A stretch of 64,000 nucleotides of DNA from Escherichia coli (GTDB lineage Bacteria; Pseudomonadota; Gammaproteobacteria; Enterobacterales; Enterobacteriaceae): NCBI RefSeq assembly GCF_001677475.2, contig NZ_CP015229.1. One strand, written 5' to 3'. The notes under the pieces are model-generated. The model had not been told where the DNA came from. It did not search any database and saw only the letters and a program-made list of their open reading frames with translations. Each line of letters begins with the position of its first letter. The first letter of the stretch is position 1. A program made the translations under genes and the position numbers. Positions 2,984 through 35,832 of this stretch are shown in pieces.

Positions 2984-3203
2984 TGTTTACCTCCTGCAAC
3001 GCTACCCGGTACGCCTTCTTTATCCACGCTGTACTGCCATATAACTTCGTCTTCATAAAAAACACCCCTGCACGGCTCGCCGATATCCCCGGACAGGCTA
3101 ACAGCACTGCATCCACCACACGGTTATGCTTCCGGAACTCCATTACAGTACTGCTGATAACCACCTGTCCCACCGGGCCGTAATCCTGATACAGGATTTT
3201 CAC
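2976..3203 (-). CDS. Hypothetical prophage protein (75 aa)
   Basis: ORF track entry in a tightly packed minus-strand gene array. Confidence 0.35.
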   Translation of the reverse strand: MKILYQDYGPVGQVVISSTVMEFRKHNRVVDAVLLACPGISASRAGVFFMKTKLYGSTAWIKKAYRVALQEVNSE

Positions 3204-3454: not shown

Positions 3455-3510
3455 TGTTCCCGCGCACTGCCGAAGAATAAGGATTTCAGCCCGCACCCAG
3501 CCACGCCATC

Positions 3511-4272: not shown

Positions 4273-4306
4273 TAAAATTTCCTCCCGGTAAAAATCACTT
4301 CTCAAC

Positions 4307-4972
4307 TCAAACAAAACCAGCCGTTTTCCGGCGTTCATACTCCTGTTTCAGCAACTCAATTGGCGTTGGTCCCGACGGGCGTTTGGGTGCCGCCAGTTGT
4401 CGCCGGACTGGCGGAATGCTCAGGCCATTACCAACATGCTTTGCCCATTTCGTCAGTTGCCGTTCTGCAAGCCGTTTTAACTCCCCTTCGGTCATCTGGC
4501 GCTCAATCCCCTTTGAACGCATCTCGAGGCAAATGTGATACAGCACAGGCTGAGACCACGGGTACTTATCACTTCCGTCGTATCGCCAGGACTCATTGCG
4601 CCAGCGGCGGTACTCCTCCATCACAGCATCCACCGTCAGACCGAATGGATTGGCTCCGCTTTCCGAAATCAGTGCCACAAACTCAGCCAGGTCCGGAGGC
4701 CATGTTTCACCCGCCCGGCAGCGGTCCATGCACTGGCGGCAGACCTGCCGGATTTGCTGCTCAGTCATCGCGCCAATCTGTGCAATCCAGAGCTTCGAAG
4801 GTGCGGCCCCGTTCTTCCGGGGCCAGCGGTTCGAATAAACCTCCCCCATGAGTTCCCACAGCTTCCAGGCCGTTTCCGTCGCTGATAAATCCGTTTTCAC
4901 GTTCCCACTGCTCACGTGCTGCCCGAATTTCCTGAACTGCCCGTGATGCGGTGCCACCTGGTGCTGCTGCAT
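4307..4972 (-). CDS. Lambda P-like replication protein (helicase loader); start uncertain
   Basis: C-terminal half aligns in pattern with lambda P ([28 protein letters not shown]) from memory. The ORF as listed overlaps the upstream gene by 212 bp; internal starts at about 4846 or 4768 are more likely. Confidence 0.55.
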
Positions 4973-5876
4973 GGTTTGCCCCCTTGCTGACTGGTTTAAC
5001 CTGTGCCCTGACGTGATTTACGTGACGGGCGAATTTCTGCTCCCACTGAACCTGCGTGAAAACTTTACCCTCCTCAGTCCAGTAATCCCTGAATGCGGCA
5101 AGTTCAGCAGGTGTAAATTCCGGCTCTGGCAGAGCCATCCCCCACAACGCAGCCCGTCGTCGAAAATCCCGTGACGGATACCAGCTATCGGTCATCGGAA
5201 ATTTTCCGATGGGTTCGTTCACGCCGTCCAGGAGCACGGGGGGGGTTGTCTGTAGCGACAAAACTCCCCGCTCACTGGTCGGAGCACTCTCACGTGCGTT
5301 ATGTGTGGGGTTTAGATCTTTGGGTTCCTTTGGGTTCCGTGATCCGTTTTTGGGTGTCTTTGATGGAAAATTTGGGTGTCTTTGGTTATTTTCCATGCAG
5401 CAAAGAGTTCCGTTTTTGGGGCTGTTTTGTGCTGAAACATAACCGTTTTCGGTACTGTTTTTATTAACAGCACCAATTTTACCCACCTTTAAAGACACCC
5501 GTTTTTGGGTGTATTCAGGCTCGGCAACACTTTCTTCTACACCGATAAGTCGGTACACCACAATTTGCTTTGTTCTGCCTTTTCTCTCACCGGTATCAAT
5601 AATTAACCCAATCTCCATCAGGTGTCGTAAGCTGTCCTGCACAGTCTTTTTGTTCAGTTCCGTTACTTCTGCCAGTGCAGATACAGACGGGTATGCACAC
5701 AAATCGGCACCGCACATATCAGCAAGCCAGGTCAATACTGACTTACTGGATGAACTGCCGGTTTTCACCTTTTTAGCCCACCGTAGTGCATCGATACTCA
5801 TACGAACCTCTGGCAGACATTTGTTTATCTGCAAAGTAATAATGATATTGCTGACGATACGCATGCTTGAAAGCAA
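4761..5876 (-). CDS. Prophage replication initiation protein (N-terminal HTH, C-terminal DnaT-like domain)
   Basis: N-terminal winged-helix-like region (SVSALAEVTELNKKTVQDSLRHLMEIGLI), low-complexity linker, C-terminal WYPSRDFRRR...ELAAFRDYW...WEQKF resembling DnaT/DUF1376-type phage replication proteins; probable true start near 5801 (MSIDALRW). Confidence 0.6.
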   Translation of the reverse strand: MLSSMRIVSNIIITLQINKCLPEVRMSIDALRWAKKVKTGSSSSKSVLTWLADMCGADLCAYPSVSALAEVTELNKKTVQDSLRHLMEIGLIIDTGERKGRTKQIVVYRLIGVEESVAEPEYTQKRVSLKVGKIGAVNKNSTENGYVSAQNSPKNGTLCCMENNQRHPNFPSKTPKNGSRNPKEPKDLNPTHNARESAPTSERGVLSLQTTPPVLLDGVNEPIGKFPMTDSWYPSRDFRRRAALWGMALPEPEFTPAELAAFRDYWTEEGKVFTQVQWEQKFARHVNHVRAQVKPVSKGANHAAAPGGTASRAVQEIRAAREQWERENGFISDGNGLEAVGTHGGGLFEPLAPEERGRTFEALDCTDWRDD

Positions 5877-6324
5877 TAGCTTTTTCTATAAGCTCGTCAG
5901 TCTCACGTTCCACAACAGATGGATCCGCAAAAAGCAGCCCGGACTCCACCACATCGCCATATTCTTTGTTTAACCCGGCGATCATGTACGTAATGCTTTT
6001 TCCGTCAGTAATTTCACAATACAACCTGAAATCGCTGATCCGGATAGCCTCCATAATTGCCGGAATCAGCGCCGTGAATTTTTCCCGCTTATCCCTGGTG
6101 TCGATAGCTTTCCAGCGTTCGAATATCTTCACCCGGTTAACGCCCAGCGCCCGTTGATCAACCTCGCCATCATTAAACGTGACGCGTTGAACATCGATGT
6201 TCGGGCGTTCTTTCAGAGCCCAGAATGCTTCCGTGATTAAAATAGTCGCCTGCTCCTGTGTCATTCCTGGTCGGCATACCCAGGCATCCAGAGCCTCACA
6301 AACCTGTTCAGGGGTGATTTTCAT
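5773..6324 (-). CDS. YdaT-like prophage regulatory protein (CII-position gene)
   Basis: Lies directly downstream of the cro-like gene; central segment REKFTALIPAIMEAIRISDFRL resembles the YdaT-family helix; call is by position and weak motif only. Confidence 0.45.
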   Translation of the reverse strand: MKITPEQVCEALDAWVCRPGMTQEQATILITEAFWALKERPNIDVQRVTFNDGEVDQRALGVNRVKIFERWKAIDTRDKREKFTALIPAIMEAIRISDFRLYCEITDGKSITYMIAGLNKEYGDVVESGLLFADPSVVERETDELIEKAIAFKHAYRQQYHYYFADKQMSARGSYEYRCTTVG

Positions 6325-6535
6325 TGTTCAACCGCCCCGCCCGCTTTGCCTTACGATATTCGTCATAAACTTTGGGGTCGTACTGAAGTTCCCCGCCGGA
6401 TGCCTCTTGCAGGCGCATCGCGCGACCTTCAGGAACCAGTTCCCCCCATGCAGCAATGCTTGCCAGCCTAACTCCTGCGGCATTGGCAAGCTTTGTTTTG
6501 CTGCCAAAAAACGCTATAGCATCAATTTTCAACAT
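6308..6535 (-). CDS. dicC: DicC-like Cro-type regulator
   Basis: 75-aa protein divergent from the DicA-like repressor across a 76-bp operator region; sequence pattern MLKIDAIAFFGSKTKLANAAGVRLASIAAWGE...EGRAMRLQEASGGELQYDPKVYDEY matches my recollection of DicC. Confidence 0.7.
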   Translation of the reverse strand: MLKIDAIAFFGSKTKLANAAGVRLASIAAWGELVPEGRAMRLQEASGGELQYDPKVYDEYRKAKRAGRLNNENHP

Positions 6536-6611
6536 ATCGAGTTCCTTAGATTTTCCTAAGGAAACTAGATCGTAGAGAAACCTAAGTCAATAAAAATTAG
6601 AATTCCCTAAT
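6536..6611. promoter_or_regulatory. Divergent operator/promoter region between the dicC-like and dicA-like genes
   Basis: Contains the inverted repeat CCTTAG-N6-CTAAGG and a further CCTAAG half-site; expected location of the immunity switch. Confidence 0.5.
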
Positions 6612-7019
6612 ATGAAAAACGAAACCTTCGGTGCTCGCCTCTTACATAGGCGTAAAAAATTAAAACTGTCTCAGGCCGCATTAGGTAAGCTGGTCAAAGT
6701 GGCTCACGTAACAATTTCTCAATGGGAAAGAGATGAAACACAGCCGGCGGGGAAAAGATTATTCGCACTGAGCCAAGCGCTTCAGTGCTCACCGACTTGG
6801 CTTCTTTTTGGGGATGAAGATAAACAACCAGGCGAACCGATCCCGGATAATCAGCCAGCCATTCTGACAGAAGATCAAAAAGAGTTACTTCAACTGTTCG
6901 ACGCACTGCCTGAGTCAGAGCAAAAGGCCCTGTTGTCAGAGATGCGTGCTCGAGTTGAAAATTTCAACAAACTTTTTGAAGAACTACTCAAAGCTCGCAA
7001 AAGAAGCGCAAACAAATAA
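6612..7019 (+). CDS. dicA: DicA-like prophage repressor (XRE-family HTH)
   Basis: 135 aa; strong pattern match to DicA as I recall it (LFALSQALQCSPTWLLFGDEDKQP, LFDALPESEQ, MRARVENFNKLFEELLKAR). Confidence 0.85.
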   Translation: MKNETFGARLLHRRKKLKLSQAALGKLVKVAHVTISQWERDETQPAGKRLFALSQALQCSPTWLLFGDEDKQPGEPIPDNQPAILTEDQKELLQLFDALPESEQKALLSEMRARVENFNKLFEELLKARKRSANK

Positions 7020-7029
7020 CCCCCTTTTT

Positions 7030-7150
7030 TCTCCACACCCTGTAATAAAAAGCACAAAATTTCAAACAATTGTGTTTTTTACATCAAAAAACTTAGGTTT
7101 TTCTACATAAACAGCTTGACCACATACCTTAGGTTATTCTAAATTTCATT
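7030..7150. promoter_or_regulatory. Putative second operator set and early promoter downstream of dicA
   Basis: Repeated motifs CTTAGGTTTTTCTAC and CCTTAGGTTATTCTAA share the CTTAGG half-site with the dicC-dicA intergenic region; AT-rich. Confidence 0.4.
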
Positions 7151-7221
7151 CATCAAGACACCGCACGGTGTTCTCAGCAAACAGTTCCGCTACCCCAGCG
7201 TTAAGGGGAAATGAGGTCAGC

Positions 7222-7377
7222 ATGGATACTATCGATCTTGGTAACAACGAATCTCTGGTGTGCGGCGTGTTCCCAAACCAGGACGGCACATTCACCGCGA
7301 TGACGTATACCAGAAGCAAAACGTTTAAAACCGAAGCTGGCGCGCGTCGCTGGCTGGAAAGAAATTCAGGTGAGTGA
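7222..7377 (+). CDS. ydfA: YdfA-like small protein (51 aa)
   Basis: Size and position (first gene of the dicB operon) match Qin ydfA; the ORF track 7168..7377 includes an upstream extension. Confidence 0.65.
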   Translation: MDTIDLGNNESLVCGVFPNQDGTFTAMTYTRSKTFKTEAGARRWLERNSGE

Positions 7378-7378
7378 T

Positions 7379-7507
7379 ATGGATTTCGACGCAATCATGG
7401 AAAAGGCTTACGAAGAATACTTCGAAGGCCTTGCCGAAGGCGAAGAAGCTCTCAGCTTCAGTGAGTTTAAACAGACGCTTTCCAGTTCGGCAAAATCTAA
7501 CGACTGA
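7379..7507 (+). CDS. ydfB: YdfB-like small acidic protein (42 aa)
   Basis: Hand-translated MDFDAIMEKAYEEYFEGLAEGEEALSFSEFKQTLSSSAKSND; the ATG lies 1 nt after the ydfA stop; size and position match Qin ydfB. Confidence 0.55.
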   Translation: MDFDAIMEKAYEEYFEGLAEGEEALSFSEFKQTLSSSAKSND

Positions 7508-7536
7508 TAAGAGAAGCGGCACCGCGAGGAATCAGT

Positions 7537-7752
7537 ATGCAGAAACGAGAACCCGTCATCATCGCACCAGACTATACCGAGGATGAAATTTACGAATGGA
7601 TGTGCGGAAAGATACGCGCCATTAATTACCTGAAGCAGGCCGCTGACTACAAAGAGCGCCTCTCTAAAGAACTGGTGTCAGCGGAGCAGGATATTACCAC
7701 TCTGGCAAAAAGCGCGGCATTAAACGTTTCGCGAGTGACTGAAAACTACTGA
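7537..7752 (+). CDS. ydfC: YdfC-like protein (71 aa)
   Basis: ORF track; size and position match Qin ydfC. Confidence 0.6.
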   Translation: MQKREPVIIAPDYTEDEIYEWMCGKIRAINYLKQAADYKERLSKELVSAEQDITTLAKSAALNVSRVTENY

Positions 7753-7841
7753 CCACTGAGCTCAAGTAGTTCTCCACAGATGAAGTGCGTGCGCCGGACA
7801 CGGATAAACCTCCGGCATGCTCTTTAACAATCTGGATATTC

Positions 7842-8288
7842 CTAACCACAAAGAAATCGCATCAATTTGGATTTTGTGGGCAACTTCTCTTGTTGTTCGA
7901 TGGAGACGCCCATTTTGATCTGTGTTTTTAAGATCGCAATATCTTTAAGTGATGACCAAATATGACCATCTGTTTTTTCCAGAATTTTTAACTGAATTTT
8001 CAATTCCGAATCAGAATATTTTTCTGCATCATCAAAAAGCTGCAAATATTCTGCGGATTTTCTCATGGCATTACCTGACTTTTGTCCGAATCCATAAATC
8101 GTTTGGACGGTTGCGATCACAACAATAAAAACGCCAGAAATTTCCGGAATGAATCCGCCAATGACAGATGAACCGAGGATAACACTCACTACTGAGAGAA
8201 GTTTATCGAGACGACCAGTCGCTACAGAAAATAGTTGCTCAAGAAAATAGCCATATAAAATTCTGTCAAGAATATCATCCCGGTCCAT
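7842..8288 (-). CDS. Two-TM membrane protein encoded antisense inside the dicBF operon (148 aa); candidate superinfection-exclusion or abortive-infection protein
   Basis: ORF track; AT-rich codon usage distinct from its flanks; AGGTGA Shine-Dalgarno 7 nt upstream of the ATG; two adjacent hydrophobic helices (about residues 35 to 75) and a charged C-terminal domain; sits in extra DNA absent from the K-12 Qin ydfC-dicF interval as I recall it. Confidence 0.6.
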   Translation of the reverse strand: MDRDDILDRILYGYFLEQLFSVATGRLDKLLSVVSVILGSSVIGGFIPEISGVFIVVIATVQTIYGFGQKSGNAMRKSAEYLQLFDDAEKYSDSELKIQLKILEKTDGHIWSSLKDIAILKTQIKMGVSIEQQEKLPTKSKLMRFLCG

Positions 8289-8746
8289 ACATCATCACCT
8301 GCTTGTTTGGTTGTTGCTGTTCCCCCTCTCCTCCGAAGGAGTTGGAGATGGTTTTGGTCGAATGTTTTTCTCTGGTATGTGATCCCAGACTGTTTTATGC
8401 GTCGAATTGCCACCACCTGCTTGTGCTCTTTGCTCTGTCATATGATTTCCTTGGATCGTTGGGGATATCCAGATTATACAGATTTCCTGTCGTTGGGGAA
8501 TGACGGAAACCACCTCGCCTGACGTGGTTAAAAGCAGGCACACAACACGAAAGCGCACGGCGAAGTTCGTCTCACTGTACGGTGTCGGTAAATTTAATTC
8601 GACCGTGCGCTTCCGGTTGTGGCACTCCGCGAAATGACGCGGCGGTAAGTATGGCGGGGTTATTCTTTCCCCGTTGAGGACACCGGGTTGTCAGGTTGAC
8701 CATACGCTTAAGTGACAACCCCGCTGCAACGCCCTCTGTTATCAAT

Positions 8747-8799
8747 ATTCTGGTGACATTTGGCGGTATCAGTTTTACTCCGTGACTGCTCTGCCGCCC
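8747..8799 (+). ncRNA. dicF: DicF small RNA
   Basis: The sequence tTCTGGTGACaTTTGGCGGTATCAGTTTTACTCCGTGACTGCTCTGCCGCCCTTTTT matches the 53-nt DicF sequence from memory with about two substitutions, ends in a GC hairpin plus U-run, and lies about 185 bp upstream of dicB as in Qin. Confidence 0.65.
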
Positions 8800-8983
8800 T
8801 TTTTAAAAGTGAATTTTGTGATGCGGTGAATGCGGCTCAGCGCACGCGGAACAGTTAAATCGGTAAAGAGGTCATTTGCTGAGTAACGGGAATGCTCTGT
8901 ATCCGGCGTTAATTGTTAACTGGTTAACGTCACCTGGAGGCACCAGGCACTGCATCACAAAATTCATTGTTGAGGACGCGATA

Positions 8984-9172
8984 ATGGAAAAGTTATCATG
9001 CAATGCCAGTACGTCTGAACTTCGTTTCGAAATTGGCGTTATCACTGGAGAAAAAACATTTATTGAAGACGCCATTAAGCAGAGAAAACTCGAGCAGGAC
9101 CTGTTAAATGAAGTATGCATTCCTTCAATGCTGGCTCGTCTGGACCTGCTGCAAAAAGGATATAAACAATGA
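8984..9172 (+). CDS. dicB: DicB-like cell division inhibitor (62 aa)
   Basis: Internal start MEKLSCNASTSELRFEIGVITGEKTFIEDAIKQRKLEQDLLNEVCIPSMLARLDLLQKGYKQ aligns along its length with K-12 DicB (FEIGV, EDAI.KRK, SMLARL); the ORF track 8876..9172 is an upstream extension. Confidence 0.85.
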   Translation: MEKLSCNASTSELRFEIGVITGEKTFIEDAIKQRKLEQDLLNEVCIPSMLARLDLLQKGYKQ

Positions 9173-9360
9173 ATACAACATTTGCACTCGTTCTGACAGT
9201 TTATCTTGTTTCCGGCGAATCTCTTGAGCTGGTGACTGGCTTATACGGTTCAATGAAAGAATGCATGGCTGCCGCAGCAGAACAAAAAATTCCCGGTAAC
9301 TGTTATCCGGTAGATAAAGCTACTCACACTAATAATAACGAAATACCGGCGGGACTTTAA
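9169..9360 (+). CDS. ydfD: YdfD-like small protein (63 aa) with an N-terminal hydrophobic segment
   Basis: Immediately follows dicB with a 4-bp overlap, as ydfD does in Qin; 63 aa with a signal/TM-like N-terminus. Confidence 0.6.
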   Translation: MNTTFALVLTVYLVSGESLELVTGLYGSMKECMAAAAEQKIPGNCYPVDKATHTNNNEIPAGL

Positions 9361-9453
9361 AACAGCACCGAAATAAACATCCGGTTTCATTTTTATATGC
9401 CAGCAATGGCAGGGATTTGTTCACCCTTAAATCTGTAATGAGGTTAAAACAAA

Positions 9454-11925
9454 ATGAATAAAGTCTTTATTTGCGCAGCTATTCCGGACGAACAGGCAAT
9501 AAAGGAAGAAGGTGCAGTCGCTGTGGCCTCTGCCATTGAAGCCGGTGACGAGCGCCGCGCCCGTGCCAAATTTACCTGGCAATTCCTGGAGCAATATCCG
9601 GCTGCTCAGGACTGCGCTTATAAATTTCTTGTCTGTGAGGATAAACCCGGCATGCCCCGCCCTGCCATTGACTCCTGGGATACCGAATATATGCAGGAAA
9701 ACCGCTGGGATGAGGAATGCGCTTCCTTTGTTCCGGTCGAACCAGAATCCGATCCGATGAACGTCAATTTTGACAAGCTGTCCCCTGAAGTACAGAACGC
9801 GGTCCTGATTAAGTTCGGTACATGTGAAAACATCACCGTTGATATGGCGATTGACGCTCAGGAATTACTGCAGGAAGACGTGGCTACCTTTGACGGGCAT
9901 ATCGTTGAAGCACTGATGAAAACGCCTGAAATTAACGCTATGTATCCGGAACGCAAACTGTTCGCTATCGGATGGGTTAAACACAAATGTAAGCCGGGTA
10001 CCAAATGGACCGAAATTCAGGCTGAATTACGTAACTGGAAAAAACGGCAGGACGCAGAGCGCAAAGAGACTGGAAAATACACGTCTGTTGTTGATCTTGC
10101 CCGCGCCAGAGTCAACCGACATAGCACTGAAAACTCAGCAGAAAAAATCAATTCTGTCACTGCCGCCATTCGTCGCGAATACAAGCAGACCTGGAAAACA
10201 CTGGATAAAGAACTGGCCTATGCTCTCTGGCCTGGTGACATTGATGTCCGGAACATTGACGGCAGCATCCATAGATGGGCAAAAAATGAAGTTATCGACA
10301 AGGATCGCGAAGACTGGAAACGCATCTCCGCATCAATGCGCAAACAGCCTGATGCGATTCGCTACAGCCGTCAGACGATTTTTGGCCTTGTTCGTGAACG
10401 TCCGGTCGACATTCACAAAGACCCCGTGGCACTGAATAAATACATCACTGAATACCTTGCGACAAAGGGCGTGTTTGAAGATGAAGAAGAAGATCAGAGC
10501 GTTGTTGATGTTCTCCAGTCGTCAGCATCACAAACTGATGCAGTGGAAACTGAAGTACCTGATACCCAAAAAAATGAAAGCGCGCTGGAAGATGAATCAT
10601 CTGTAGAGCGTGAGGGGCCGTTCTACTTCCTCTTCAGCGATAAGGATGGAGAAAAATACGGTCGCGCAAACAAACTTTCAGGTCTGAATAAGGCGCTCGC
10701 TGCAGGGGCTACTGAAATCACGAAAGAAGAATATTTTGCTCGAAAAAACGGTACATACTCAGGTTCACAACAAAATACTGGTGCATCTGACACGACCGCA
10801 CAACCAGAGCCGGTAAAAGTTACTGCTGACGAAGTGAACAAAATTATGCAGGCAGCCAATATCAGCCTGCCTGACGCCAGTCAGTTGCTCGCTGCATCAC
10901 GTGGTGAATTTGTTGCAGGGATTAGCGACCCGAATGATCTGAAATGGATTAAAGGGATCCAGACCCGCGATTCTATGAACCAAAACCAGCAAGAAACGGA
11001 ACAGAACGACCAGAAAGCGGAACAAAGCAGCCCAAATGCGCAACAAAACGAGCCAGAAACGAAACAATCCGAACCAGTAGTGCAACAGGAACCGGAAAAA
11101 GTCTGCACCGCCTGCGGTCAGAGCGGTGGCGGCAACTGCCCCGATTGTGGCGCGGTCATGGGCAACGCAACATACCAGGAAACATTCGATGAAGAGAATC
11201 AGGTTGAAGCTCAGGAGAATGATCCGGAGGAAATGGAAGGCGCTGAACATCCACACAAGGAGAACACTGGCGGCAATCAGCATCACGCCAGCGATAGTGA
11301 AACTGGCGAGACGGCAGATCCCTTAATTACGGTGAACAGTCATCACGTTATCACATCCACCAGCAGGACGTGTGACCATCTAATGATCGACCTTGAAGCC
11401 ATGGGAATAAATCCTGATGCCCCGATTATCTCAATAGGTGCAATATTTTTCGATCCGCAAACCGGAGATATGGGACCGGAATTTAGTAAGACTGTCGATC
11501 TGGAAACTGCTGGCGGAGTCATTGATCGGGACGCCATTAAATGGTGGCTTAAGCAATCACGCGAAGCGCAATCTGCCATTATGACCGATGAAATCCCGTT
11601 AGATGATGCACTGTTACAATTGCGGGAATTTATCGACGAAAACTCCGGTGAATTTTTTGTTCAGGTCTGGGGAAATGGAGCAAACTTCGACAACACGATT
11701 TTGCGCCGTTCATACGAACGGCAGGGGATCCCCTGCCCGTGGCGTTACTACAACGATCGCGATGTGCGCACAATCGTTGAGCTGGGGAAAGCCATAGACT
11801 TCGATGCCAGAACTGCTATCCCATTCGAAGGTGAGCGCCATAATGCACTTGATGACGCTCGTTACCAGGCAAAATACGTTTCAGCTATCTGGCAAAAACT
11901 GATCCCGAGTCAGGCTGATTTTTAA
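9454..11925 (+). CDS. Large prophage exonuclease in the RecE position (823 aa) with a C-terminal DEDDh-type 3-prime-5-prime exonuclease domain
   Basis: C-terminal motifs MIDLEAMG (Exo I), WGNGANFDNTIL (Exo II) and HNALDDARYQAKY (Exo III); central low-complexity Q/E-rich linker with C-x2-C...C-x2-C; occupies the ydfE/recE position between dicB-ydfD and xis-int. Confidence 0.75.
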   Translation: MNKVFICAAIPDEQAIKEEGAVAVASAIEAGDERRARAKFTWQFLEQYPAAQDCAYKFLVCEDKPGMPRPAIDSWDTEYMQENRWDEECASFVPVEPESDPMNVNFDKLSPEVQNAVLIKFGTCENITVDMAIDAQELLQEDVATFDGHIVEALMKTPEINAMYPERKLFAIGWVKHKCKPGTKWTEIQAELRNWKKRQDAERKETGKYTSVVDLARARVNRHSTENSAEKINSVTAAIRREYKQTWKTLDKELAYALWPGDIDVRNIDGSIHRWAKNEVIDKDREDWKRISASMRKQPDAIRYSRQTIFGLVRERPVDIHKDPVALNKYITEYLATKGVFEDEEEDQSVVDVLQSSASQTDAVETEVPDTQKNESALEDESSVEREGPFYFLFSDKDGEKYGRANKLSGLNKALAAGATEITKEEYFARKNGTYSGSQQNTGASDTTAQPEPVKVTADEVNKIMQAANISLPDASQLLAASRGEFVAGISDPNDLKWIKGIQTRDSMNQNQQETEQNDQKAEQSSPNAQQNEPETKQSEPVVQQEPEKVCTACGQSGGGNCPDCGAVMGNATYQETFDEENQVEAQENDPEEMEGAEHPHKENTGGNQHHASDSETGETADPLITVNSHHVITSTSRTCDHLMIDLEAMGINPDAPIISIGAIFFDPQTGDMGPEFSKTVDLETAGGVIDRDAIKWWLKQSREAQSAIMTDEIPLDDALLQLREFIDENSGEFFVQVWGNGANFDNTILRRSYERQGIPCPWRYYNDRDVRTIVELGKAIDFDARTAIPFEGERHNALDDARYQAKYVSAIWQKLIPSQADF

Positions 11926-11977
11926 TGTTCAACCCTAATTGCCGCTAACCGTATATAGTTAGCGGCGGTTATGAGAT

Positions 11978-12187
11978 ATGGCTATGAGCAGCTTATTTTT
12001 AACCGAAGATGAATTGCTAATATTAACGGGCTGCAAATATGCAAGCCACCAGCGAAAATGGTTAATGGAAAACGGGCTTCCGTTCTATACCAATCGTAGT
12101 GGCAAACCGATTGTCAGCCGGGATCTATTTACCTGCAATAAAACTTTACCACCACGCGAGGTAGAGCCGAATTTTGGTGCAATCTGA
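11978..12187 (+). CDS. Excisionase-like small DNA-binding protein
   Basis: 69-aa ORF immediately upstream of and overlapping the integrase start; the position is typical of xis. Confidence 0.5.
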   Translation: MAMSSLFLTEDELLILTGCKYASHQRKWLMENGLPFYTNRSGKPIVSRDLFTCNKTLPPREVEPNFGAI

Positions 12188-13212
12188 TGGGAAGACGAAG
12201 GAAAAATCCTGAACACGAAAAATTACCTCCAAATGTATACCCAAATAAATATAGTTATGTATGGAAACCAACATCCAGAGAATCTGTCACACTAACCGCC
12301 ATCAAGGATGGTTTAGCTGCTTTATGGAAAAAGTATGAGGAAACTGTAAATAATCGCGATCGCGCAATGACATTCGGTCGCTTGTGGGAAAAATTCCTCG
12401 CCAGCGCCTATTACAGTGACCTCAGTCCAAGAACACAAAAAGATTATCTGCAACATCAAAAAAAGTTGCTTGCCGTATTCGGTAAGGTGCCGGCAGATTC
12501 CATAAAACCAGAACACATCCGTCGATACATGGACAAGAGAGGGGAACAGAGTAAAACGCAAGCCAACCATGAAAAAAGCAGTATGTCCCGCGTTTACAAT
12601 TGGGGGTATGAGCGAGGGTACGTGAAGGGTAACCCATGTGCAGGTGTAAGTAAATTCAAGGCCAAAAACCGCGAACGATATGTAACCGACAAAGAATACC
12701 AGGCAGTATTAAGTGTTGCACCTCTTCCTGTTTTTATCGCAATGGAAATTGCCTATCTGTGTGCAGCGAGGGTTTCCGATGTGTTATCACTGAAATGGGA
12801 GCAGATTGGAAACGACGGGATCTTTATCCAGCAAGGGAAAACAGGGAAAAAACAGATAAAAGCATGGAGTCCACGATTACAGGCGGCGATCGAAAAAGCA
12901 AAACAGTTACCAACATCTGCCTATGTAATCAGCAATCAATATGGCAACCGATATATGTACAAAGGTTTTAACGAAATGTGGGTAGAAGCAAGAAATCACG
13001 CAGGCAAAATTTCAGGTATTTTAACCGACTTCACCTTTCATGATCTGAAGGCGAAAGGAATTTCAGACTATGAAGGAAGCAGCCGGGATAAGCAACTTTT
13101 CTCTGGTCACAAAACCGAAGGGCAAGTGCTAATCTATGACAGAAAGGTTAAAGTTTCACCAACACTTGATGTCCCGTTACCTGATAATATTCCAAGAAAA
13201 TATTCCAAGTAA
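12187..13212 (+). CDS. int: Tyrosine-type phage integrase
   Basis: 341 aa; C-terminal catalytic region with H-x-x-R (FTFHDLKAKG) and the tyrosine motif (VLIYDRK); ends about 50 bp from the 3-prime end of tRNA-Ser. Confidence 0.9.
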   Translation: MGRRRKNPEHEKLPPNVYPNKYSYVWKPTSRESVTLTAIKDGLAALWKKYEETVNNRDRAMTFGRLWEKFLASAYYSDLSPRTQKDYLQHQKKLLAVFGKVPADSIKPEHIRRYMDKRGEQSKTQANHEKSSMSRVYNWGYERGYVKGNPCAGVSKFKAKNRERYVTDKEYQAVLSVAPLPVFIAMEIAYLCAARVSDVLSLKWEQIGNDGIFIQQGKTGKKQIKAWSPRLQAAIEKAKQLPTSAYVISNQYGNRYMYKGFNEMWVEARNHAGKISGILTDFTFHDLKAKGISDYEGSSRDKQLFSGHKTEGQVLIYDRKVKVSPTLDVPLPDNIPRKYSK

Positions 13213-13264
13213 TTCCAAGTGTGATTTTTGTCACTGACTTAATGATGTGTAAGTGATTGAATTT

Positions 13265-13354
13265 TGGCGGAGAGAGGGGGATTTGAACCCCCGGTGGAGT
13301 TGCCCCCACTCCGGTTTTCGAGACCGGTCCGTTCAGCCGCTCCGGCATCTCTCC
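13265..13354 (-). tRNA. serU: tRNA-Ser (anticodon CGA), serU-like
   Basis: Reverse complement reads GGAGAGATGCCGGAGCGGCTGAACGGACCGGTCTCGAAAACCGGAGTGGGGGCAACTCCACCGGGGGTTCAAATCCCCCTCTCTCCGCCA, a 90-nt class II tRNA with a CGA anticodon and long variable arm. Confidence 0.9.
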
Positions 13355-13447
13355 GTTCAGATGGTTGCCATGATGCCAGGAAATTTGGCATTTTAACAGT
13401 CCCTGTCCGTGCAATTTTGTTCAAGTGACGAGTTTGCGAGCAAAACG

Positions 13448-14245
13448 ATGATTAAGTGGCCCTGGAAAGTACAAGAATCAGCACATCAAACTGCCCTTCC
13501 CTGGCAGGAAGCACTATCGATCCCCCTTTTAACGTGTCTGACGGAACAGGAACAAAGCAAATTAGTCACTCTTGCCGAACGTTTTTTACAGCAAAAACGG
13601 CTTGTTCCTTTACAGGGCTTTGAACTGGATTCATTAAGAAGCTGCCGGATAGCACTTCTATTTTGCCTGCCCGTTCTGGAGTTAGGACTGGAATGGCTGG
13701 ATGGTTTTCATGAAGTCTTAATTTATCCTGCGCCATTTGTGGTCGATGATGAATGGGAAGACGATATCGGTCTGGTGCATAACCAACGTATTGTTCAGTC
13801 AGGTCAGAGCTGGCAGCAAGGGCCTATCGTTTTGAACTGGTTGGATATACAAGATTCTTTTGATGCTTCTGGTTTTAACCTGATTATTCATGAAGTCGCT
13901 CATAAGCTGGACACCCGTAACGGCGATCGCGCCAGTGGAGTTCCCTTTATTCCGTTGCGTGAGGTTGCTGGCTGGGAACACGATCTTCATGCTGCAATGA
14001 ACAACATTCAGGAAGAAATCGAATTAGTTGGCGAGAATGCGGCGAGCATTGATGCTTATGCTGCCAGTGATCCTGCTGAATGTTTTGCCGTACTTTCTGA
14101 ATATTTCTTTAACGCCCCAGAACTTTTTGCTCCTCGTTTCCCTTCATTGTGGCAACGTTTCTGCCAATTTTATCAACAAGATCCTTTGCAGAGACTGCAT
14201 CACGCTAATGATACAGACTCGTTTTCGGCGACGAATGTTCATTAA
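13448..14245 (+). CDS. mtfA: MtfA (Mlc titration factor A) zinc-dependent peptidase
   Basis: Internal start MIKWPWK within ORF 13409..14245; HEVAH zinc-binding motif; matches E. coli MtfA/YeeI in sequence and position next to asnT. Confidence 0.85.
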
Positions 14246-14734: not shown

Positions 14735-22738
<8,004 letters not shown>

Positions 22739-23319
22739 TTTTTCGTTATAATTTCTTACAGAGTGCTCCATTCGGGGCGCTCTGCTTTTACATTCGTTTA
22801 CTGTCAAACGCTCTATTAATATACCTGCATTTCCCATACCCCCCTGTTAGTTTGAAGATAGTCGAGCCTCCTTACTTTTTTTATAAAAGCTTTCACACAC
22901 GATATAACCACCTGTTCCACGCCAGCAGGAAACGAAGTACATGAGCTATTTTTGATAGCTATGATTGTTGCTATGTAGTCAAATTACGTTAATGTTTAGC
23001 TAATTACATCAAGAAGGAAGATATGTTAGGACGTACAAACAACATTAATTCATATTTCAATATTACAAATTACATCAGTACCACTCATAATAATGTATGC
23101 CTGTTAACGGAGATTTAAGTTCAGGTTGTCTTATTTATGATGGTGAAATACATTACAATGTTTTAGTTCCACCTGAATCGCGTTCGGTGTGACTATGATC
23201 ATTTTCGGTGAGTACTGCTTTGATCCAAAGGCTGGTTTTCTGTGATGATTAACCAGCCTCAGGGTATTGATGACACCACCGTTCATAACAGATCGGCATT
23301 ACTTTGCATACGTACTGCT

Positions 23320-24372
23320 TCATATTCTTGCCAAAACACTTTTTAATGCCTTTGCGAATTCATCCAGACTTATATTGTCAATTTTTTGCCCAACGACGAC
23401 TGACTCCGAGACATCGGCCATTGCGGGCCATCGCGTTTTGTAATCAGCATAAATTGCAACAACGGGGGTATTATAGGCACTTGCCATATGTAATATTGAG
23501 GTGTCAGGAGTTATTGCGATATAAGCATCTTTTATGATTGCTGCCGAACGTTTAATCGAGGGTGATAAGGATAAACGGAAGACATTATTATAACAATCCA
23601 CTAATACCCTGGCTTTATCTTCCCCTTTTGGTCCATGAACGATCACTATTGGCATATCTGTTTCATTTTTAATTTTTGCTATTAGATTTTCTGCTATCGA
23701 TAATGAAAATGTACGTTCCTGTGCACTACCTTCTAAATTGAGCGCAATGTAAGCTCCTAACGATCGCATTTCCTCGCGCACCTCATCGAGTACATCCTCG
23801 CTTAATGGCAATTCATATATTGGCCTGACTGCAGGAAAACCCGCTTCACGCATCATAAACGCCCATGTCATGGGTACGGGAGCCCTGAGATTCTGATCCA
23901 TCCGGGACGCGTTCTTACACAAAGGGGAATAGCACTTCATGGTTAAACCGACAACCTGAAAATTCGTTTTTGCTTTCAACTGACTGATAAATAACATCGT
24001 TTTCAGGTTCTTTTTACGCATCGCCTCTATACAAAGATCCGGCGTACCGTATTGCTGTGTTATGTTCTTCGCTAAATCTTTTATTTCTTTTAATGTTGCG
24101 TGATCCTGCATAGTCATTGTGACTAATGTTAATTTAGTCTGTTCAAGTTTGAGCGCATTAAAGACTTCTAAATTAATAGTCGAAGTAACAATTAAAAGAT
24201 GCTTTATTTTATGCATTTCAATCGCCCGAATAACTGGAAAGATGGCCATCGCATCGCCAATTTGATCGGGAATATGGATGACAACAAAGTCTGTTTTTCC
24301 AATATTGAAATTATTAGCTTTATAATCGTAGTAACTAAATGCAATACGTCTCAACAATGATGCTAAAAACAT
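23320..24372 (-). CDS. yeeL: YeeL-like glycosyltransferase family 9 (heptosyltransferase-like) protein, apparently intact
   Basis: 350-aa ORF between yeeJ and shiA, the K-12 position of the yeeL pseudogene; GT9-like composition. Confidence 0.6.
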   Translation of the reverse strand: MFLASLLRRIAFSYYDYKANNFNIGKTDFVVIHIPDQIGDAMAIFPVIRAIEMHKIKHLLIVTSTINLEVFNALKLEQTKLTLVTMTMQDHATLKEIKDLAKNITQQYGTPDLCIEAMRKKNLKTMLFISQLKAKTNFQVVGLTMKCYSPLCKNASRMDQNLRAPVPMTWAFMMREAGFPAVRPIYELPLSEDVLDEVREEMRSLGAYIALNLEGSAQERTFSLSIAENLIAKIKNETDMPIVIVHGPKGEDKARVLVDCYNNVFRLSLSPSIKRSAAIIKDAYIAITPDTSILHMASAYNTPVVAIYADYKTRWPAMADVSESVVVGQKIDNISLDEFAKALKSVLARI

Positions 24373-24686
24373 ACCTAACCTCGCCTCCCTACTGGTTATA
24401 ATGCAATGCAGTCTATCAGACTCATCAGGGTGCTATTTTGTACATATGCGGACTTTTATGTTTCATATCTCGAACCTGTGGGTGCTCTGCTTAATCCTTA
24501 AACAACACCAGCAACACCTGCGCTTTCATCTTCCATCGAATTTTTCATGTTGCCGTTAATCAGCTATAAAATCATTTGCAGATGCGCTCTGTCGAGGTAG
24601 TCTCATAAGGTTCGTTTATAGATCGACGGCAATGTGAGTTACCTTTTCCATACTAATTATAAAAAGACAGTACAAACAGGATCATT

Positions 24687-26003
24687 ATGGACTCCACGCT
24701 CATCTCCACTCGTCCCGATGAAGGGACGCTTTCGTTAAGTCGCGCCCGACGAGCTGCGTTAGGCAGTTTTGCCGGTGCCGTCGTCGACTGGTATGATTTT
24801 TTACTCTATGGCATTACCGCCGCACTGGTGTTTAATCGCGAGTTTTTCCCGCAAGTAAGCCCGGCTATGGGAACGCTCGCCGCATTTGCTACCTTTGGCG
24901 TCGGATTCCTTTTCCGTCCGCTCGGCGGTGTCATTTTCGGTCACTTTGGCGACCGACTGGGACGTAAGCGCATGTTAATGCTGACCGTCTGGATGATGGG
25001 CATCGCGACAGCCTTGATTGGTATTCTTCCTTCCTTCTCGACCATTGGGTGGTGGGCACCTATTTTGCTGGTGACACTGCGTGCCATTCAGGGATTTGCC
25101 GTCGGCGGCGAATGGGGAGGCGCAGCGTTGCTTTCCGTTGAAAGTGCGCCGGAAAATAAAAAAGCCTTTTACAGTAGCGGTGTACAAGTTGGCTACGGTG
25201 TAGGTTTACTGCTTTCAACCGGACTGGTTTCATTGATCAGTATGATGACGACCGACGAACAATTTTTAAGCTGGGGCTGGCGCATTCCTTTCCTGTTTAG
25301 CATCGTACTGGTACTGGGAGCATTGTGGGTGCGCAATGGCATGGAGGAGTCCGCGGAATTTGAACAACAGCAACATAATCAAGCGGCCGCGAAAAAACGC
25401 ATCCCGGTTATCGAAGCACTATTACGACATCCCGGTGCTTTCCTGAAGATTATTGCGCTACGACTGTGCGAGTTGCTGACGATGTACATCGTTACCGCCT
25501 TTGCACTTAATTATTCAACCCAGAATATGGGTTTACCGCGCGAACTTTTCCTTAATATAGGTTTGCTGGTCGGTGGATTAAGCTGCCTGACAATTCCCTG
25601 TTTTGCCTGGCTTGCCGATCGTTTTGGTCGCCGCAGGGTTTATATCACAGGCGCGTTGATCGGAACGTTGAGCGCATTTCCTTTCTTTATGGCGCTTGAA
25701 GCACAATCTATTTTCTGGATAGTTTTCTTCTCCATAATGCTGGCAAACATTGCGCATGACATGGTGGTGTGTGTACAACAACCGATGTTTACCGAAATGT
25801 TTGGTGCCAGTTATCGCTATAGTGGCGCTGGAGTCGGTTATCAGGTTGCCAGTGTGGTTGGTGGTGGATTTACACCTTTTATTGCCGCTGCACTCATCAC
25901 TTACTTTGCCGGGAACTGGCATAGCGTCGCCATTTATTTGCTGGCTGGATGCCTGATTTCCGCAATAACCGCTTCGTTGATGAAAGACAATCAACGCGCT
26001 TGA
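24687..26003 (+). CDS. shiA: Shikimate/dehydroshikimate MFS transporter
   Basis: 438-aa 12-TM MFS protein with the sugar-transporter signature GHFGDRLGRKRM; matches E. coli ShiA and its position upstream of amn. Confidence 0.85.
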   Translation: MDSTLISTRPDEGTLSLSRARRAALGSFAGAVVDWYDFLLYGITAALVFNREFFPQVSPAMGTLAAFATFGVGFLFRPLGGVIFGHFGDRLGRKRMLMLTVWMMGIATALIGILPSFSTIGWWAPILLVTLRAIQGFAVGGEWGGAALLSVESAPENKKAFYSSGVQVGYGVGLLLSTGLVSLISMMTTDEQFLSWGWRIPFLFSIVLVLGALWVRNGMEESAEFEQQQHNQAAAKKRIPVIEALLRHPGAFLKIIALRLCELLTMYIVTAFALNYSTQNMGLPRELFLNIGLLVGGLSCLTIPCFAWLADRFGRRRVYITGALIGTLSAFPFFMALEAQSIFWIVFFSIMLANIAHDMVVCVQQPMFTEMFGASYRYSGAGVGYQVASVVGGGFTPFIAAALITYFAGNWHSVAIYLLAGCLISAITASLMKDNQRA

Positions 26004-26104
26004 TAGTCTGGCGAAGATCATCCGATCTTCGCCTTACACTTTTGTTTCACATTCCTGTGACATACTATCGGATGTGCGGTAATTGTATGGAACAGGAGAC
26101 ACAC

Positions 26105-27559
26105 ATGAATAATAAGGGCTCCGGTCTGACCCCAGCTCAGGCACTGGATAAACTCGACGCGCTGTATGAGCAATCTGTAGTCGCTTTACGCAACGCCATT
26201 GGCAAATATATTACAAGTGGCGAATTACCTGATGAAAACGCCCGCAAACAAGGTCTTTTTGTCTATCCATCACTGACCGTAACCTGGGACGGTAGCACAA
26301 CCAATCCCCCCAAAACGCGCGCATTTGGTCGTTTTACTCACGCAGGCAGCTACACCACCACGATTACTCGCCCTACTCTCTTTCGTTCGTATCTCAATGA
26401 ACAACTTACGTTGCTGTATCAGGATTATGGTGCGCATATCTCTGTGCAACCCTCGCAGCATGAAATCCCTTATCCTTATGTCATCGATGGCTCTGAATTG
26501 ACACTTGATCGCTCAATGAGCGCTGGGTTAACTCGCTATTTCCCGACAACAGAACTGGCGCAAATTGGCGATGAAACTGCAGACGGCATTTATCATCCAA
26601 CTGAATTCTCCCCGCTATCGCATTTTGATGCGCGCCGCGTCGATTTTTCCCTCGCGCGGTTGCGCCATTATACCGGTACGCCGGTTGAACATTTTCAGCC
26701 GTTCGTCTTGTTTACCAACTACACACGTTATGTGGATGAATTCGTTCGTTGGGGATGCAACCAGATCCTCGATCCTGATAGTCCCTACATTGCCCTTTCT
26801 TGTGCTGGCGGGAACTGGATCACCGCCGAAACCGAAGCGCCAGAAGAAGCCATTTCCGACCTTGCATGGAAAAAACACCAGATGCCCGCATGGCATTTAA
26901 TTACCGCCGATGGTCAGGGTATTACTCTGGTGAATATTGGCGTGGGACCGTCAAATGCTAAAACCATCTGCGATCATCTGGCGGTGCTACGCCCGGATGT
27001 CTGGTTGATGATTGGTCACTGTGGTGGCTTACGTGAAAGCCAGGCCATTGGAGATTATGTACTTGCACACGCTTATTTACGCGATGACCACGTTCTTGAT
27101 GCGGTACTGCCGCCCGATATTCCTATTCCGAGCATTGCTGAAGTGCAACGTGCGCTTTATGACGCTACCAAGTTAGTCAGCGGCAGGCCAGGTGAGGAAG
27201 TTAAACAGCGGCTACGTACTGGCACTGTGGTAACCACAGATGACAGGAACTGGGAATTACGTTACTCAGCTTCTGCACTTCGTTTTAACTTAAGCCGGGC
27301 CGTAGCAATTGATATGGAAAGTGCAACCATTGCCGCGCAAGGATATCGTTTCCGCGTGCCATACGGGACACTACTGTGTGTTTCAGATAAACCGTTGCAT
27401 GGTGAGATTAAACTTCCCGGTCAGGCTAACCGTTTTTATGAAGGCGCTATTTCCGAACACCTGCAAATTGGCATTCGGGCGATCGATTTGCTGCGCGCAG
27501 AAGGCGACCGACTGCATTCGCGTAAATTACGAACCTTTAATGAGCCGCCGTTCCGATAA
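26105..27559 (+). CDS. amn: AMP nucleosidase
   Basis: 484-aa product from the internal ATG (MNNKGSGLTPAQALDKL...); the ORF track 25949..27559 is an upstream extension overlapping the shiA end; matches E. coli Amn. Confidence 0.9.
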   Translation: MNNKGSGLTPAQALDKLDALYEQSVVALRNAIGKYITSGELPDENARKQGLFVYPSLTVTWDGSTTNPPKTRAFGRFTHAGSYTTTITRPTLFRSYLNEQLTLLYQDYGAHISVQPSQHEIPYPYVIDGSELTLDRSMSAGLTRYFPTTELAQIGDETADGIYHPTEFSPLSHFDARRVDFSLARLRHYTGTPVEHFQPFVLFTNYTRYVDEFVRWGCNQILDPDSPYIALSCAGGNWITAETEAPEEAISDLAWKKHQMPAWHLITADGQGITLVNIGVGPSNAKTICDHLAVLRPDVWLMIGHCGGLRESQAIGDYVLAHAYLRDDHVLDAVLPPDIPIPSIAEVQRALYDATKLVSGRPGEEVKQRLRTGTVVTTDDRNWELRYSASALRFNLSRAVAIDMESATIAAQGYRFRVPYGTLLCVSDKPLHGEIKLPGQANRFYEGAISEHLQIGIRAIDLLRAEGDRLHSRKLRTFNEPPFR

Positions 27560-27619
27560 TAAGTTCTGAACCTTCTTATCAAAAATAGATGTGAAGGATT
27601 AAGTAAGACATCTGGCAAA

Positions 27620-27648
27620 TAGCCCGCAATAAACGCGGGCTGTTTGCT
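27620..27648 (+). terminator. Terminator-like hairpin after amn
   Basis: agcccgc-aataaac-gcgggct followed by a T-rich run. Confidence 0.5.
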
Positions 27649-27901
27649 TCCTTGGGCGGATACGAGTTTTATTATCGTCTTAATGATTTCCACATATTAA
27701 AAGCAAGTATGCTTTCAAAACACAATTATAAAAAATTCCGCCAACAATATAAGTTTTTATAAAATTAAATATAAGATTATGGCTTTAGAATATTTTTATT
27801 TCTAATAGACGAGATTTTTCCTGTTATGATATAATATGCCGAATTAACACATGTTAACGATTTACCAGTAATGTAAATAAATTTTCGAGGAGATCATTCC
27901 A

Positions 27902-28618
27902 GTGGGACGTAAATGGGCCAATATTGTTGCTAAAAAAACGGCTAAAGACGGTGCAACGTCTAAAATTTATGCAAAATTCGGTGTAGAAATCTATGCCGCT
28001 GCCAAACAAGGTGAACCCGATCCAGAATTAAACACATCTTTAAAATTCGTTATTGAACGAGCAAAGCAGGCACAAGTTCCAAAGCATGTTATTGATAAAG
28101 CAATTGATAAAGCCAAAGGCGGCGGAGATGAAACGTTCGTGCAGGGCCGTTATGAAGGCTTTGGTCCTAATGGCTCAATGATTATCGCTGAGACCTTGAC
28201 TTCCAATGTTAACCGTACGATTGCTAACGTTCGCACAATTTTCAATAAAAAAGGCGGCAATATCGGAGCGGCAGGTTCTGTCAGCTATATGTTTGACAAT
28301 ACGGGTGTGATTGTATTTAAAGGAACAGACCCTGACCATATTTTTGAAATTTTACTTGAAGCTGAAGTTGATGTTCGTGATGTAACTGAAGAAGAAGGTA
28401 ATATTGTTATTTATACTGAACCTACTGACCTTCATAAAGAAATCGCGGCTCTAAAAGCAGCTGGAATCACTGAGTTCTCAACAACAGAATTAGAAATGAT
28501 TGCTCAATCTGAAGTTGAGCTTTCCCCAGAAGATTTAGAAATCTTTGAAGGGCTTGTTGATGCCCTTGAAGATGACGACGATGTTCAAAAAGTTTATCAT
28601 AACGTCGCAAATCTCTAA
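27902..28618 (+). CDS. yeeN: YebC/PmpR-family probable transcriptional regulator
   Basis: 238 aa, GTG start, N-terminal [11 protein letters not shown] typical of the YebC family; position matches yeeN. Confidence 0.85.
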
Positions 28619-29071
28619 TTATATTTTAAAGAAATCTGTCTTTATGGCAGATTTCTTTAATCTCATATAATTCTTATAAAAAATATAATATTCAACTCGT
28701 CATATTGATTATAAAAATACCGGTCCCAGAGAAATAATATTTATTAAATTTCCAGGTTTTCTTTTTCTGATTACAGAAGACAAAGTGGCAATTACGTTTA
28801 GTTTCCCGATAAAAACGCGACAGCAACATCCCGCATAAGGCATTTTTCTCTTTATCTTTGTACGATACTTCATGGAACAGAGTTTTTGACCTTGTGAATC
28901 GTGATGTCTGTTGGGGAGGGGCAATTTGCTCACTGAAGCGTGAGACTCGATTAAGCGCACGAAACACAGAAATCAAAAAACCCGGTCACTTTTTTACAAG
29001 GTAACCGGGTAAAAATAATTTTTATTTTTTAATTGTTTTGAGACTCATAGAGATGTCTCAAAACTAAAATT

Positions 29072-29147
29072 TGGCTCCTCTGACTGGACTCGAACCAGTG
29101 ACATACGGATTAACAGTCCGCCGTTCTACCGACTGAACTACAGAGGA
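29072..29147 (-). tRNA. asnW: tRNA-Asn (GUU)
   Basis: Exact reverse complement of the 76-nt asnT sequence. Confidence 0.95.
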
Positions 29148-29247
29148 ATCGTGAGAACGAGGCGAATATTAGCGATGCCCATCCACAATGTCAAAGCCTG
29201 TTTTTTAAATTTGAAATCGTTTGCTGAAATAATCTGCATTTTGTCGT

Positions 29248-30888: not shown

Positions 30889-30895
30889 CAGCGAT

Positions 30896-30971
30896 TCCTC
30901 TGTAGTTCAGTCGGTAGAACGGCGGACTGTTAATCCGTATGTCACTGGTTCGAGTCCAGTCAGAGGAGCCA
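30896..30971 (+). tRNA. asnU: tRNA-Asn (GUU)
   Basis: Identical 76-nt tRNA-Asn sequence. Confidence 0.95.
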
Positions 30972-30979
30972 AATTTCTA

Positions 30980-31009
30980 AAAAGCCCGCTTTTTTAGCGG
31001 GCTTTTTGC
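30980..31009 (+). terminator. Intrinsic terminator after asnU (probably bidirectional, abuts the cbl stop)
   Basis: aaagcccgc-ttttttag-cgggcttttt. Confidence 0.7.
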
Positions 31010-35465: not shown

Positions 35466-35720
35466 GTTTTATTTTGGCGTTGATGTACAAGCTAACCAGC
35501 TGTCAAATAAGAGATTATGATAGATTCGTCATTGGCTCCTTTAATCAGCTGTCGCGTTCCCCTGCCCTATAAAAGGAGGGTATGCACCACGATGGTTCAT
35601 TACCCAATAAGATTGAAAGCTCACCACTTTGTTGAAATTGACAGCAAACAAACAAAAAAATGCATTTCACCCTTTGACATCACCATGCACTGCCATTAAT
35701 ATGCGCCCCGTTCACACGAT

Positions 35721-35796
35721 TCCTCTGTAGTTCAGTCGGTAGAACGGCGGACTGTTAATCCGTATGTCACTGGTTCGAGTCCAGTCAGAGGAGCCA
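35721..35796 (+). tRNA. asnV: tRNA-Asn (GUU)
   Basis: Identical 76-nt tRNA-Asn sequence; same upstream discriminator as asnT. Confidence 0.95.
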
Positions 35797-35802
35797 AATT
35801 CA

Positions 35803-35832
35803 AAAAAGCCTGCTTTTAAGCAGGCTTTTTGC
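35803..35832 (+). terminator. Intrinsic terminator after asnV
   Basis: aaaaaagcctgc-tttta-agcaggcttttt. Confidence 0.7.

Follow-up and report, generated by a model that had tools for sequence, protein, structure and literature searches.

In a 64,000-nucleotide stretch of Escherichia coli DNA (contig NZ_CP015229.1 of assembly GCF_001677475.2; hereafter the window), yeeL is an intact orphan gene of glycosyltransferase family 9 (GT9), and its product, YeeL, is probably an accessory transferase acting on a lipopolysaccharide (LPS)-type glycan. The gene reads from an ATG start as an uninterrupted open reading frame (ORF) of 350 amino acids on the minus strand (23320..24372). That it is intact is real but ordinary: the wild-type allele here differs from the pseudogene of K-12, and the gene, its GT9 assignment, this exact allele and the pseudogene status in K-12 are all on record in public annotation.

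A full-length gene under purifying selection

A preliminary description of this DNA had called the yeeL ORF uninterrupted, and the ORF listing and a codon-by-codon comparison with strain MG1655 (NC_000913.3) agree with that call. In MG1655, yeeL (b4497) is a 1053-bp pseudogene between yeeJ (b1978) and shiA (b1981), and a K-12-type RefSeq record marks it 'internal stop'. The window ORF is collinear with the MG1655 gene, each being 1053 bp long with no indels, and the K-12 copy is a pseudogene because of a single TAA at codon 235; the 'split' pseudogene that the preliminary description gave for K-12 comes down to this one nonsense codon.

Full-length YeeL homologues of 349–377 amino acids are found across Escherichia, Pseudocitrobacter, Erwinia and Rosenbergiella, with identities to YeeL of 73% in Escherichia of the E. 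ruysiae/marmotae type, 67% in E. albertii and Pseudocitrobacter, 60–64% in Erwinia and 52–56% in Rosenbergiella. In a 19-sequence alignment the window protein shares its start and end columns with homologues from five genera and ~100 positions are invariant; YeeL therefore reaches the length of its family and is not truncated. Pairwise Nei–Gojobori ratios of non-synonymous to synonymous substitution rates (dN/dS) among four E. coli alleles were 0.15–0.22, so yeeL is under purifying selection. The family is small: an exhaustive phmmer search against 1.84 billion cluster representatives gave 484 matches with E values of at most 1e-3, of which 28 were no higher than 1e-30.

Predicted fold and catalytic residues

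The GT9-like character suggested in the preliminary description is borne out by Pfam profile PF01075 (Glyco_transf_9), which matched YeeL above its gathering cut-off (29.7 versus 22 bits), in residues 232–321 only. An AlphaFold2 model built from the 19-sequence alignment (predicted local distance difference test, pLDDT, 84.2; predicted template modelling score, pTM, 0.82) has two Rossmann-like halves, with only residues 142–162 at low confidence (pLDDT 33–41), and predicts a complete GT9 (GT-B) fold with both domains. Its best fold match was the Veillonella GT9 protein 3TOV (fold-search value 27.2; 301 of 344 residues aligned); the values for the other proteins were 23.7 for WaaF (heptosyltransferase II, HepII), 23.3 for WaaC (HepI), 23.0 for PnsB1, a plant GT9-like NDH subunit, and 16.4 for TibC. 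A direct sequence search of the PDB with YeeL gave marginal matches only, to WaaF and WaaC.

In a MAFFT alignment of YeeL with 22 remote full-length relatives and the K-12 proteins WaaC, WaaF and WaaU (alignment A2), the only invariant columns, the initial Met aside, are Gly39–Asp40, Asp290 and His295, the last two of which are also invariant in the YeeL-family alignment (A3; the counterparts in WaaC are given in Table 1). In WaaC, Asp13 is the proposed catalytic base; activity is lost ~4700-fold in D13A, ~2000-fold in D261A and ~900-fold in K192A, and all three residues are conserved in all HepI–IV enzymes examined (PMC5713226). In the alignments, YeeL retains the equivalents of both catalytic aspartates of WaaC, as Asp40 and Asp290.

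When the YeeL-family profile A3 was compared with K-12 heptosyltransferases by hhalign, the best score was obtained with WaaU (Prob 97%, E 9e-11, 310 columns), ahead of WaaQ (95.8%, 7.9e-9, 270 columns), WaaC (95%, 4.1e-8, 137 columns) and WaaF (86.6%, 4.5e-6, 268 columns), which makes the outer-core HepIV enzyme the nearest K-12 paralogue of YeeL. HepIV enzymes, members of the most divergent heptosyltransferase class, add heptose onto outer-core glucose or galactose (PMC5713226).

Likely role of YeeL

For the donor, acceptor, cellular location and expression of YeeL we infer the following. YeeL would be a cytoplasmic protein at the periphery of the inner membrane; a nucleotide sugar, most likely ADP-L-glycero-D-manno-heptose, would be bound by its C-terminal domain (through Arg220, Asp290 and His295), and Asp40, serving as base, would allow inverting transfer of the sugar to a lipid-anchored, LPS-core-type glycan. 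Acting in a WaaU (HepIV)-like manner, it would make an accessory, probably non-stoichiometric modification of the envelope that is dispensable in the laboratory, and the neighbouring adhesin YeeJ would not be among its targets.

The genomic surroundings of remote relatives point in this direction. Relatives at 33–36% identity, one of them from Carnimonas bestiolae, sit in surface-glycan clusters with genes for a Wzy_C ligase/polymerase, a Bac_transf initiating transferase and GT2, GT4 and WecG-type enzymes, to which individual clusters add a flippase, a second GT9 or a small ABC1-like kinase. A natural fusion of a YeeL-like GT9 domain to an O-antigen-ligase-like Wzy_C membrane domain occurs in metagenomic sequence (P0149 / P0279; 777–780 amino acids), and PF01075 scored 28–52 bits on the remote relatives. 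The G+C content of yeeL is 38.9%, as against 50–51% in yeeJ and shiA, and is similar to that of the K-12 waa outer-core genes (waaU 31%, waaL 32%, waaJ/waaO/waaB 34–40%), while YeeL itself is basic (isoelectric point, pI, 8.8). Together with the affinity to WaaU, whose better profile alignment than WaaQ, WaaC or WaaF supports the proposed acceptor, these features make an inverting GT-B transferase acting on a lipid-anchored LPS-type glycan the best-supported model.

Several observations weigh against this role. The NCBIfam equivalog models for HepI, HepII and HepIII all scored far under their cut-offs (bits/cut-off 37.2/185.3 for TIGR02193, of HepI; 19.6/134.6 for TIGR02195, of HepII; 16.7/170.2 for TIGR02201; 15.6/467 for RfaQ; and 12/569 for RfaF); YeeL is orthologous to none of them, and similarity to the characterised heptosyltransferases is so weak that donor and acceptor are not readable from sequence. 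Two segments are specific to the YeeL family and have no counterpart in WaaC and WaaF: an N-terminal helix, in which Asp16–Tyr17 is invariant, and an insertion at residues 142–162 (window ~23887–23949), which may be an acceptor-recognition loop and whose Cys147, Cys152 and SRMDQ motif are invariant in the enterobacterial alignment (A1). The residue aligned with WaaC Lys192 is not the canonical Lys but an Arg, found in at least 90% of aligned YeeL-family sequences (A2, A3), a conservative replacement that keeps the basic charge. In every Enterobacterales genome examined yeeL is an orphan with no conserved glycan-synthesis neighbour and, to our knowledge, the five E. coli core structures are all explained by waa-locus enzymes, with no LPS step missing. 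In the papers naming yeeL that were checked, the gene serves solely as a place for insertions in K-12 engineering strains, and no functional study was found. A scan for consensus sigma-70 promoters 5' of the yeeL ATG found none, with counts overall below the shuffle expectation, an uninformative outcome. Finally, the recurrent inactivation of yeeL (by the K-12 stop codon, a 2-bp deletion in strain ETEC1746, insertion sequence IS1 and truncation in Shigella sonnei) marks it as dispensable.

Much of this would fit an active GT9-fold transferase with another donor and/or a non-LPS acceptor, e.g. one that uses a different nucleotide sugar or that modifies a soluble metabolite, a cytoplasmic protein or some other envelope glycan: the N-terminal helix, the 142–162 insertion, the Arg in place of Lys192, the orphan location, the low equivalog scores and the lack of an unfilled step in the core structures known to us all speak for it. 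However, among solved structures and paralogues those nearest to YeeL are without exception LPS heptosyltransferases, and its remote relatives occur within LPS/polysaccharide clusters or as Wzy_C fusions; we regard such a change of substrate as unlikely. Somewhat less doubtful, but still tentative, is the idea that YeeL defines a distinct, small orphan GT9 clade that carries out waa-independent envelope glycosylation in most wild E. coli and is absent from K-12. The enzyme might then add a further heptose or a different sugar, non-stoichiometrically, to the LPS core or to some other acceptor that is linked to lipid or protein, and such a modification would have escaped notice because K-12, the reference strain of the laboratory, is naturally a null mutant.

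The laboratory reference strain happens to be without YeeL, although the enzyme is conserved and of the LPS-heptosyltransferase type. If YeeL does modify the envelope of wild strains, LPS biochemistry based on K-12 would have missed the modification, which could be relevant to phage receptors, to serum resistance or to core typing.

Prevalence and allelic states in E. coli

The yeeL locus is present in 5283 of 5426 complete E. coli genomes (~97%). The exact K-12 83-mer centred on TAA235 occurs in 765 of the 5426, its carriers including K-12 derivatives, strain C and many wild isolates, and the nonsense codon is therefore a lineage polymorphism at ~14%. Eleven records were sampled at intervals along the ranking of locus matches and the state of the gene in each was verified by translation. 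An intact coding sequence of 350 amino acids was found in eight of them (NCTC9040, O157:H7 FRIK2069, NC101, 2014C-3057, ET120, 98192, 'isolate 12' and FLI21) and a pseudogene in three: TAA235 interrupts the gene in the K-12 type and in TW14425, and the 2-bp deletion, at nucleotides 289–290, does so in ETEC1746. Among 40 records listed, yeeL carried an IS1 insertion in two and was a partial copy in three. Intact yeeL is the common state in E. coli, and most wild strains keep it. Truncated YeeL fragments of 200–297 amino acids labelled Shigella sonnei form large clusters (P0042, P0051 and P0091; hundreds to ~2000 members), and on this basis yeeL appears to be disrupted in the S. sonnei lineage.

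These independent inactivations (TAA235, the ETEC1746 deletion, and the IS1 and partial copies), the large clusters of truncated S. sonnei proteins and the want of partner genes, a known phenotype or a recognisable promoter are what would be expected of a functionless relic that is being lost from E. coli, of which the window ORF is merely a copy not yet hit. A relic would hardly show the low dN/dS values among E. coli alleles, nor invariant catalytic residues and 52–73% identity kept across genera, nor would it be intact in most of the sampled genomes, which have diverse backgrounds, at a locus that nearly all strains retain; we consider this explanation quite improbable. The distinction has a practical side, as K-12 engineering makes wide use of yeeL as a 'neutral' site for integration. 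That neutrality holds only for strains with the nonsense allele, because in most other E. coli an insertion would disrupt a gene that purifying selection maintains.

A protein identical to that of the window is already deposited as ANO89751.1 and under other accessions; it is found on 172 contigs under the name 'glycosyltransferase family 9 protein'. WP_000477863.1 of NCTC9040 differs from it at three residues and WP_000480501.1 of O157:H7 at 15, and the window yeeL is one of a minority group of alleles with 95–96% identity to most strains. The window gene is 99.3% identical to yeeL of NCTC9040 and 95.3–96.5% identical to that of most E. coli (dS 0.10–0.15), as compared with 97.6–98.1% for shiA and amn (24687–27559). 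This greater divergence of yeeL suggests distinct allele groups or recombination at the locus.

The yeeL locus and the YeeJ adhesin

The preliminary description had also proposed that an intact heptosyltransferase-like gene beside the yeeJ adhesin gene could modify a surface structure. That reading is supported in part, but a link to YeeJ did not survive comparison. It would make YeeL a protein heptosyltransferase that glycosylates YeeJ in the cytoplasm before export, in the manner of Aah with AIDA-I and TibC with TibA. The gene aah lies directly upstream of aidA (PMC6555100), whereas yeeJ and yeeL are convergent with a terminator between them. In Pseudocitrobacter the order amn-shiA-[yeeL]-mtfA equals the E. 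coli locus minus asnT-yeeJ, contigs of the E. ruysiae/marmotae type read hchA-[yeeL]-mtfA-shiA-amn with no yeeJ, and the yeeL copies of E. albertii, Erwinia and Rosenbergiella have no adhesin neighbour. The two genes are also distributed differently, yeeJ being a frameshifted or truncated pseudogene in five of six newly sampled strains with intact yeeL. In a study that described yeeJ length variants, intact yeeJ was present in only 38 of 96 genomes (PMC5595812), as against 97% for the yeeL locus. MG1655 YeeJ promotes biofilm in K-12 (PMC5595812), and is hence functional in a natural yeeL null. Neither the N-terminal beta-barrel nor the four-Cys iron finger seen in TibC is present in YeeL, and sequence searches with E as high as 10 brought up no match between the two proteins. 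Orientation, synteny, distribution and the missing TibC features make the adjacency of yeeL and yeeJ look incidental, and with the low rank of TibC in the fold search they led us to reject YeeL as a YeeJ modifier, a function that we hold to be extremely improbable.

Two further candidates were rejected. A major facilitator superfamily (MFS) transporter as conserved partner of yeeL was dismissed as coincidence, the upstream MFS genes of Erwinia and Rosenbergiella and shiA being mutually unrelated, and a part in anti-phage defence was dismissed as PADLOC gave no match. The E. albertii homologue (67%; CP117647.1, 10001–11059) lies between tonB and yciA and not at the mtfA/shiA locus, so the gene has moved or was independently acquired.

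In the window, shiA is the ancestral neighbour of yeeL and is followed by amn (Table 1); the same divergent yeeL/shiA layout is found in Pseudocitrobacter. The motifs GGGAGG and GAGG, 7–17 nucleotides 5' of the yeeL ATG, resemble Shine–Dalgarno sequences. On the other side, the hairpin 3' of yeeJ is predicted to keep the convergent yeeJ and yeeL transcription units apart, and Rfam (E up to 1, window 22000–25000) matched no RNA element in the yeeL flanks. The start of yeeJ was placed by mapping on the MG1655 start.

Table 1. Coordinates of yeeL, its catalytic-type residues and its flanking features in the window.
Feature	Position	Strand	Remarks
yeeJ, inverse-autotransporter adhesin gene, long variant	14792..22738	+	Convergent with yeeL; BLAST against MG1655 mtfA-asnT-yeeJ, ORF list
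Strong hairpin then T-run, just 3' of yeeJ stop	22759..22784	+	Terminator scan: 11-bp stem, 7 GC pairs
yeeL coding sequence, intact	23320..24372	-	350 codons + TGA stop; orphan GT9 (heptosyltransferase-like, predicted GT-B fold)
yeeL stop codon TGA	23320-23322	-	
Asp290-His295 (PDTSILH), putative donor-site motif	23488..23505	-	Aligned with WaaC Asp261-His266 (hmmsearch, hhalign)
yeeL codon 235	23668..23670	-	AAA (Lys) in window; CAA (Gln) in O157 and most sampled strains; TAA in K-12, TW14425 and other carriers
Arg220	23713..23715	-	Aligned with WaaC Lys192 (hhalign of enterobacterial alignment A1)
Gly39-Asp40 in HIPDQIGDAM	24253..24258	-	Aligned with WaaC Gly12-Asp13 (alignment A2)
Shine-Dalgarno-like GGGAGGCGAGG	24379..24389	-	Putative, read directly from the sequence; 7-17 nt upstream of yeeL ATG
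yeeL-shiA intergenic region, divergent	24373..24686	.	Presumed site of both promoters
shiA, shikimate transporter gene	24687..26003	+	Divergent neighbour of yeeL

The spacer between yeeJ and yeeL is 580 bp long in the window and 261 bp in MG1655. The extra ~370 bp (22796–23168) are AT-rich (33.5% G+C) and were found in only 190 of the 5426 complete E. coli genomes, in none at >95% identity; they carry no annotation in those genomes, have no Rfam match and contain no ORF longer than 51 amino acids. The window yeeJ is apparently intact and of a long, UMN026-like variant, with ~880 bp more than MG1655 (roughly 17944–18826) and a 3' half only 88–91% identical to K-12 and O157.

Upstream of mtfA, window positions 1–13800 form a prophage-like segment (with a tyrosine integrase, an exonuclease, a DnaT-like protein and others). 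The left 20 kb of the window are 98.9% identical to E. coli strains GB089 and 09-00049, and a single matching place covering at least 80% of this part was found in only 11 genomes. To the right, directly after amn, lies a stretch of low G+C content (27300–29100; 34–40%), and three more asn-tRNA-like copies matching the MG1655 asnT region occur at ~29065–29171 (minus strand), 30892–30999 (plus) and 35697–35817 (plus).

Comparison with known systems

K-12 yeeL (b4497) occupies the same locus, yeeJ-yeeL-shiA-amn, and is 95.3% identical in nucleotides to the window gene, from which it differs by TAA235 in place of AAA (Lys) and by 18 further amino-acid differences.

The adhesin heptosyltransferases TibC and Aah (bacterial autotransporter heptosyltransferases, BAHT) have a GT-B-like catalytic core that uses ADP-heptose, and their genes lie beside adhesin genes. 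TibC has an N-terminal beta-barrel, a beta-hairpin as thumb and a dodecameric assembly, and the iron finger in its C-lobe is formed by Cys339, 342, 358 and 370 (PMC4358343). The YeeL model, in contrast, opens with a helix (residues 2–13) followed by a canonical Rossmann strand at residue 29, with no barrel, and the only Cys residues of YeeL are at positions 114, 147, 152 and 260, none of them in the C-terminal 90 residues; Cys260 is not conserved in the 19-sequence alignment.

From the heptosyltransferases WaaC and WaaF and from 3TOV, to which its predicted fold is closest, YeeL differs by its low sequence identity (12–15%), the Arg at the Lys192 position and the additional N-terminal and 142–162 segments. 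WaaU, the K-12 outer-core ADP-heptose:LPS heptosyltransferase, is likewise only ~15–17% identical to YeeL, with an ambiguous alignment in the Lys192 region, and its gene lies inside the waa cluster whereas yeeL is an orphan. Their alignment nevertheless spans both domains; in both proteins strand 1 is preceded by an N-terminal extension and the GD and D..H motifs are present, and both genes are low in G+C.

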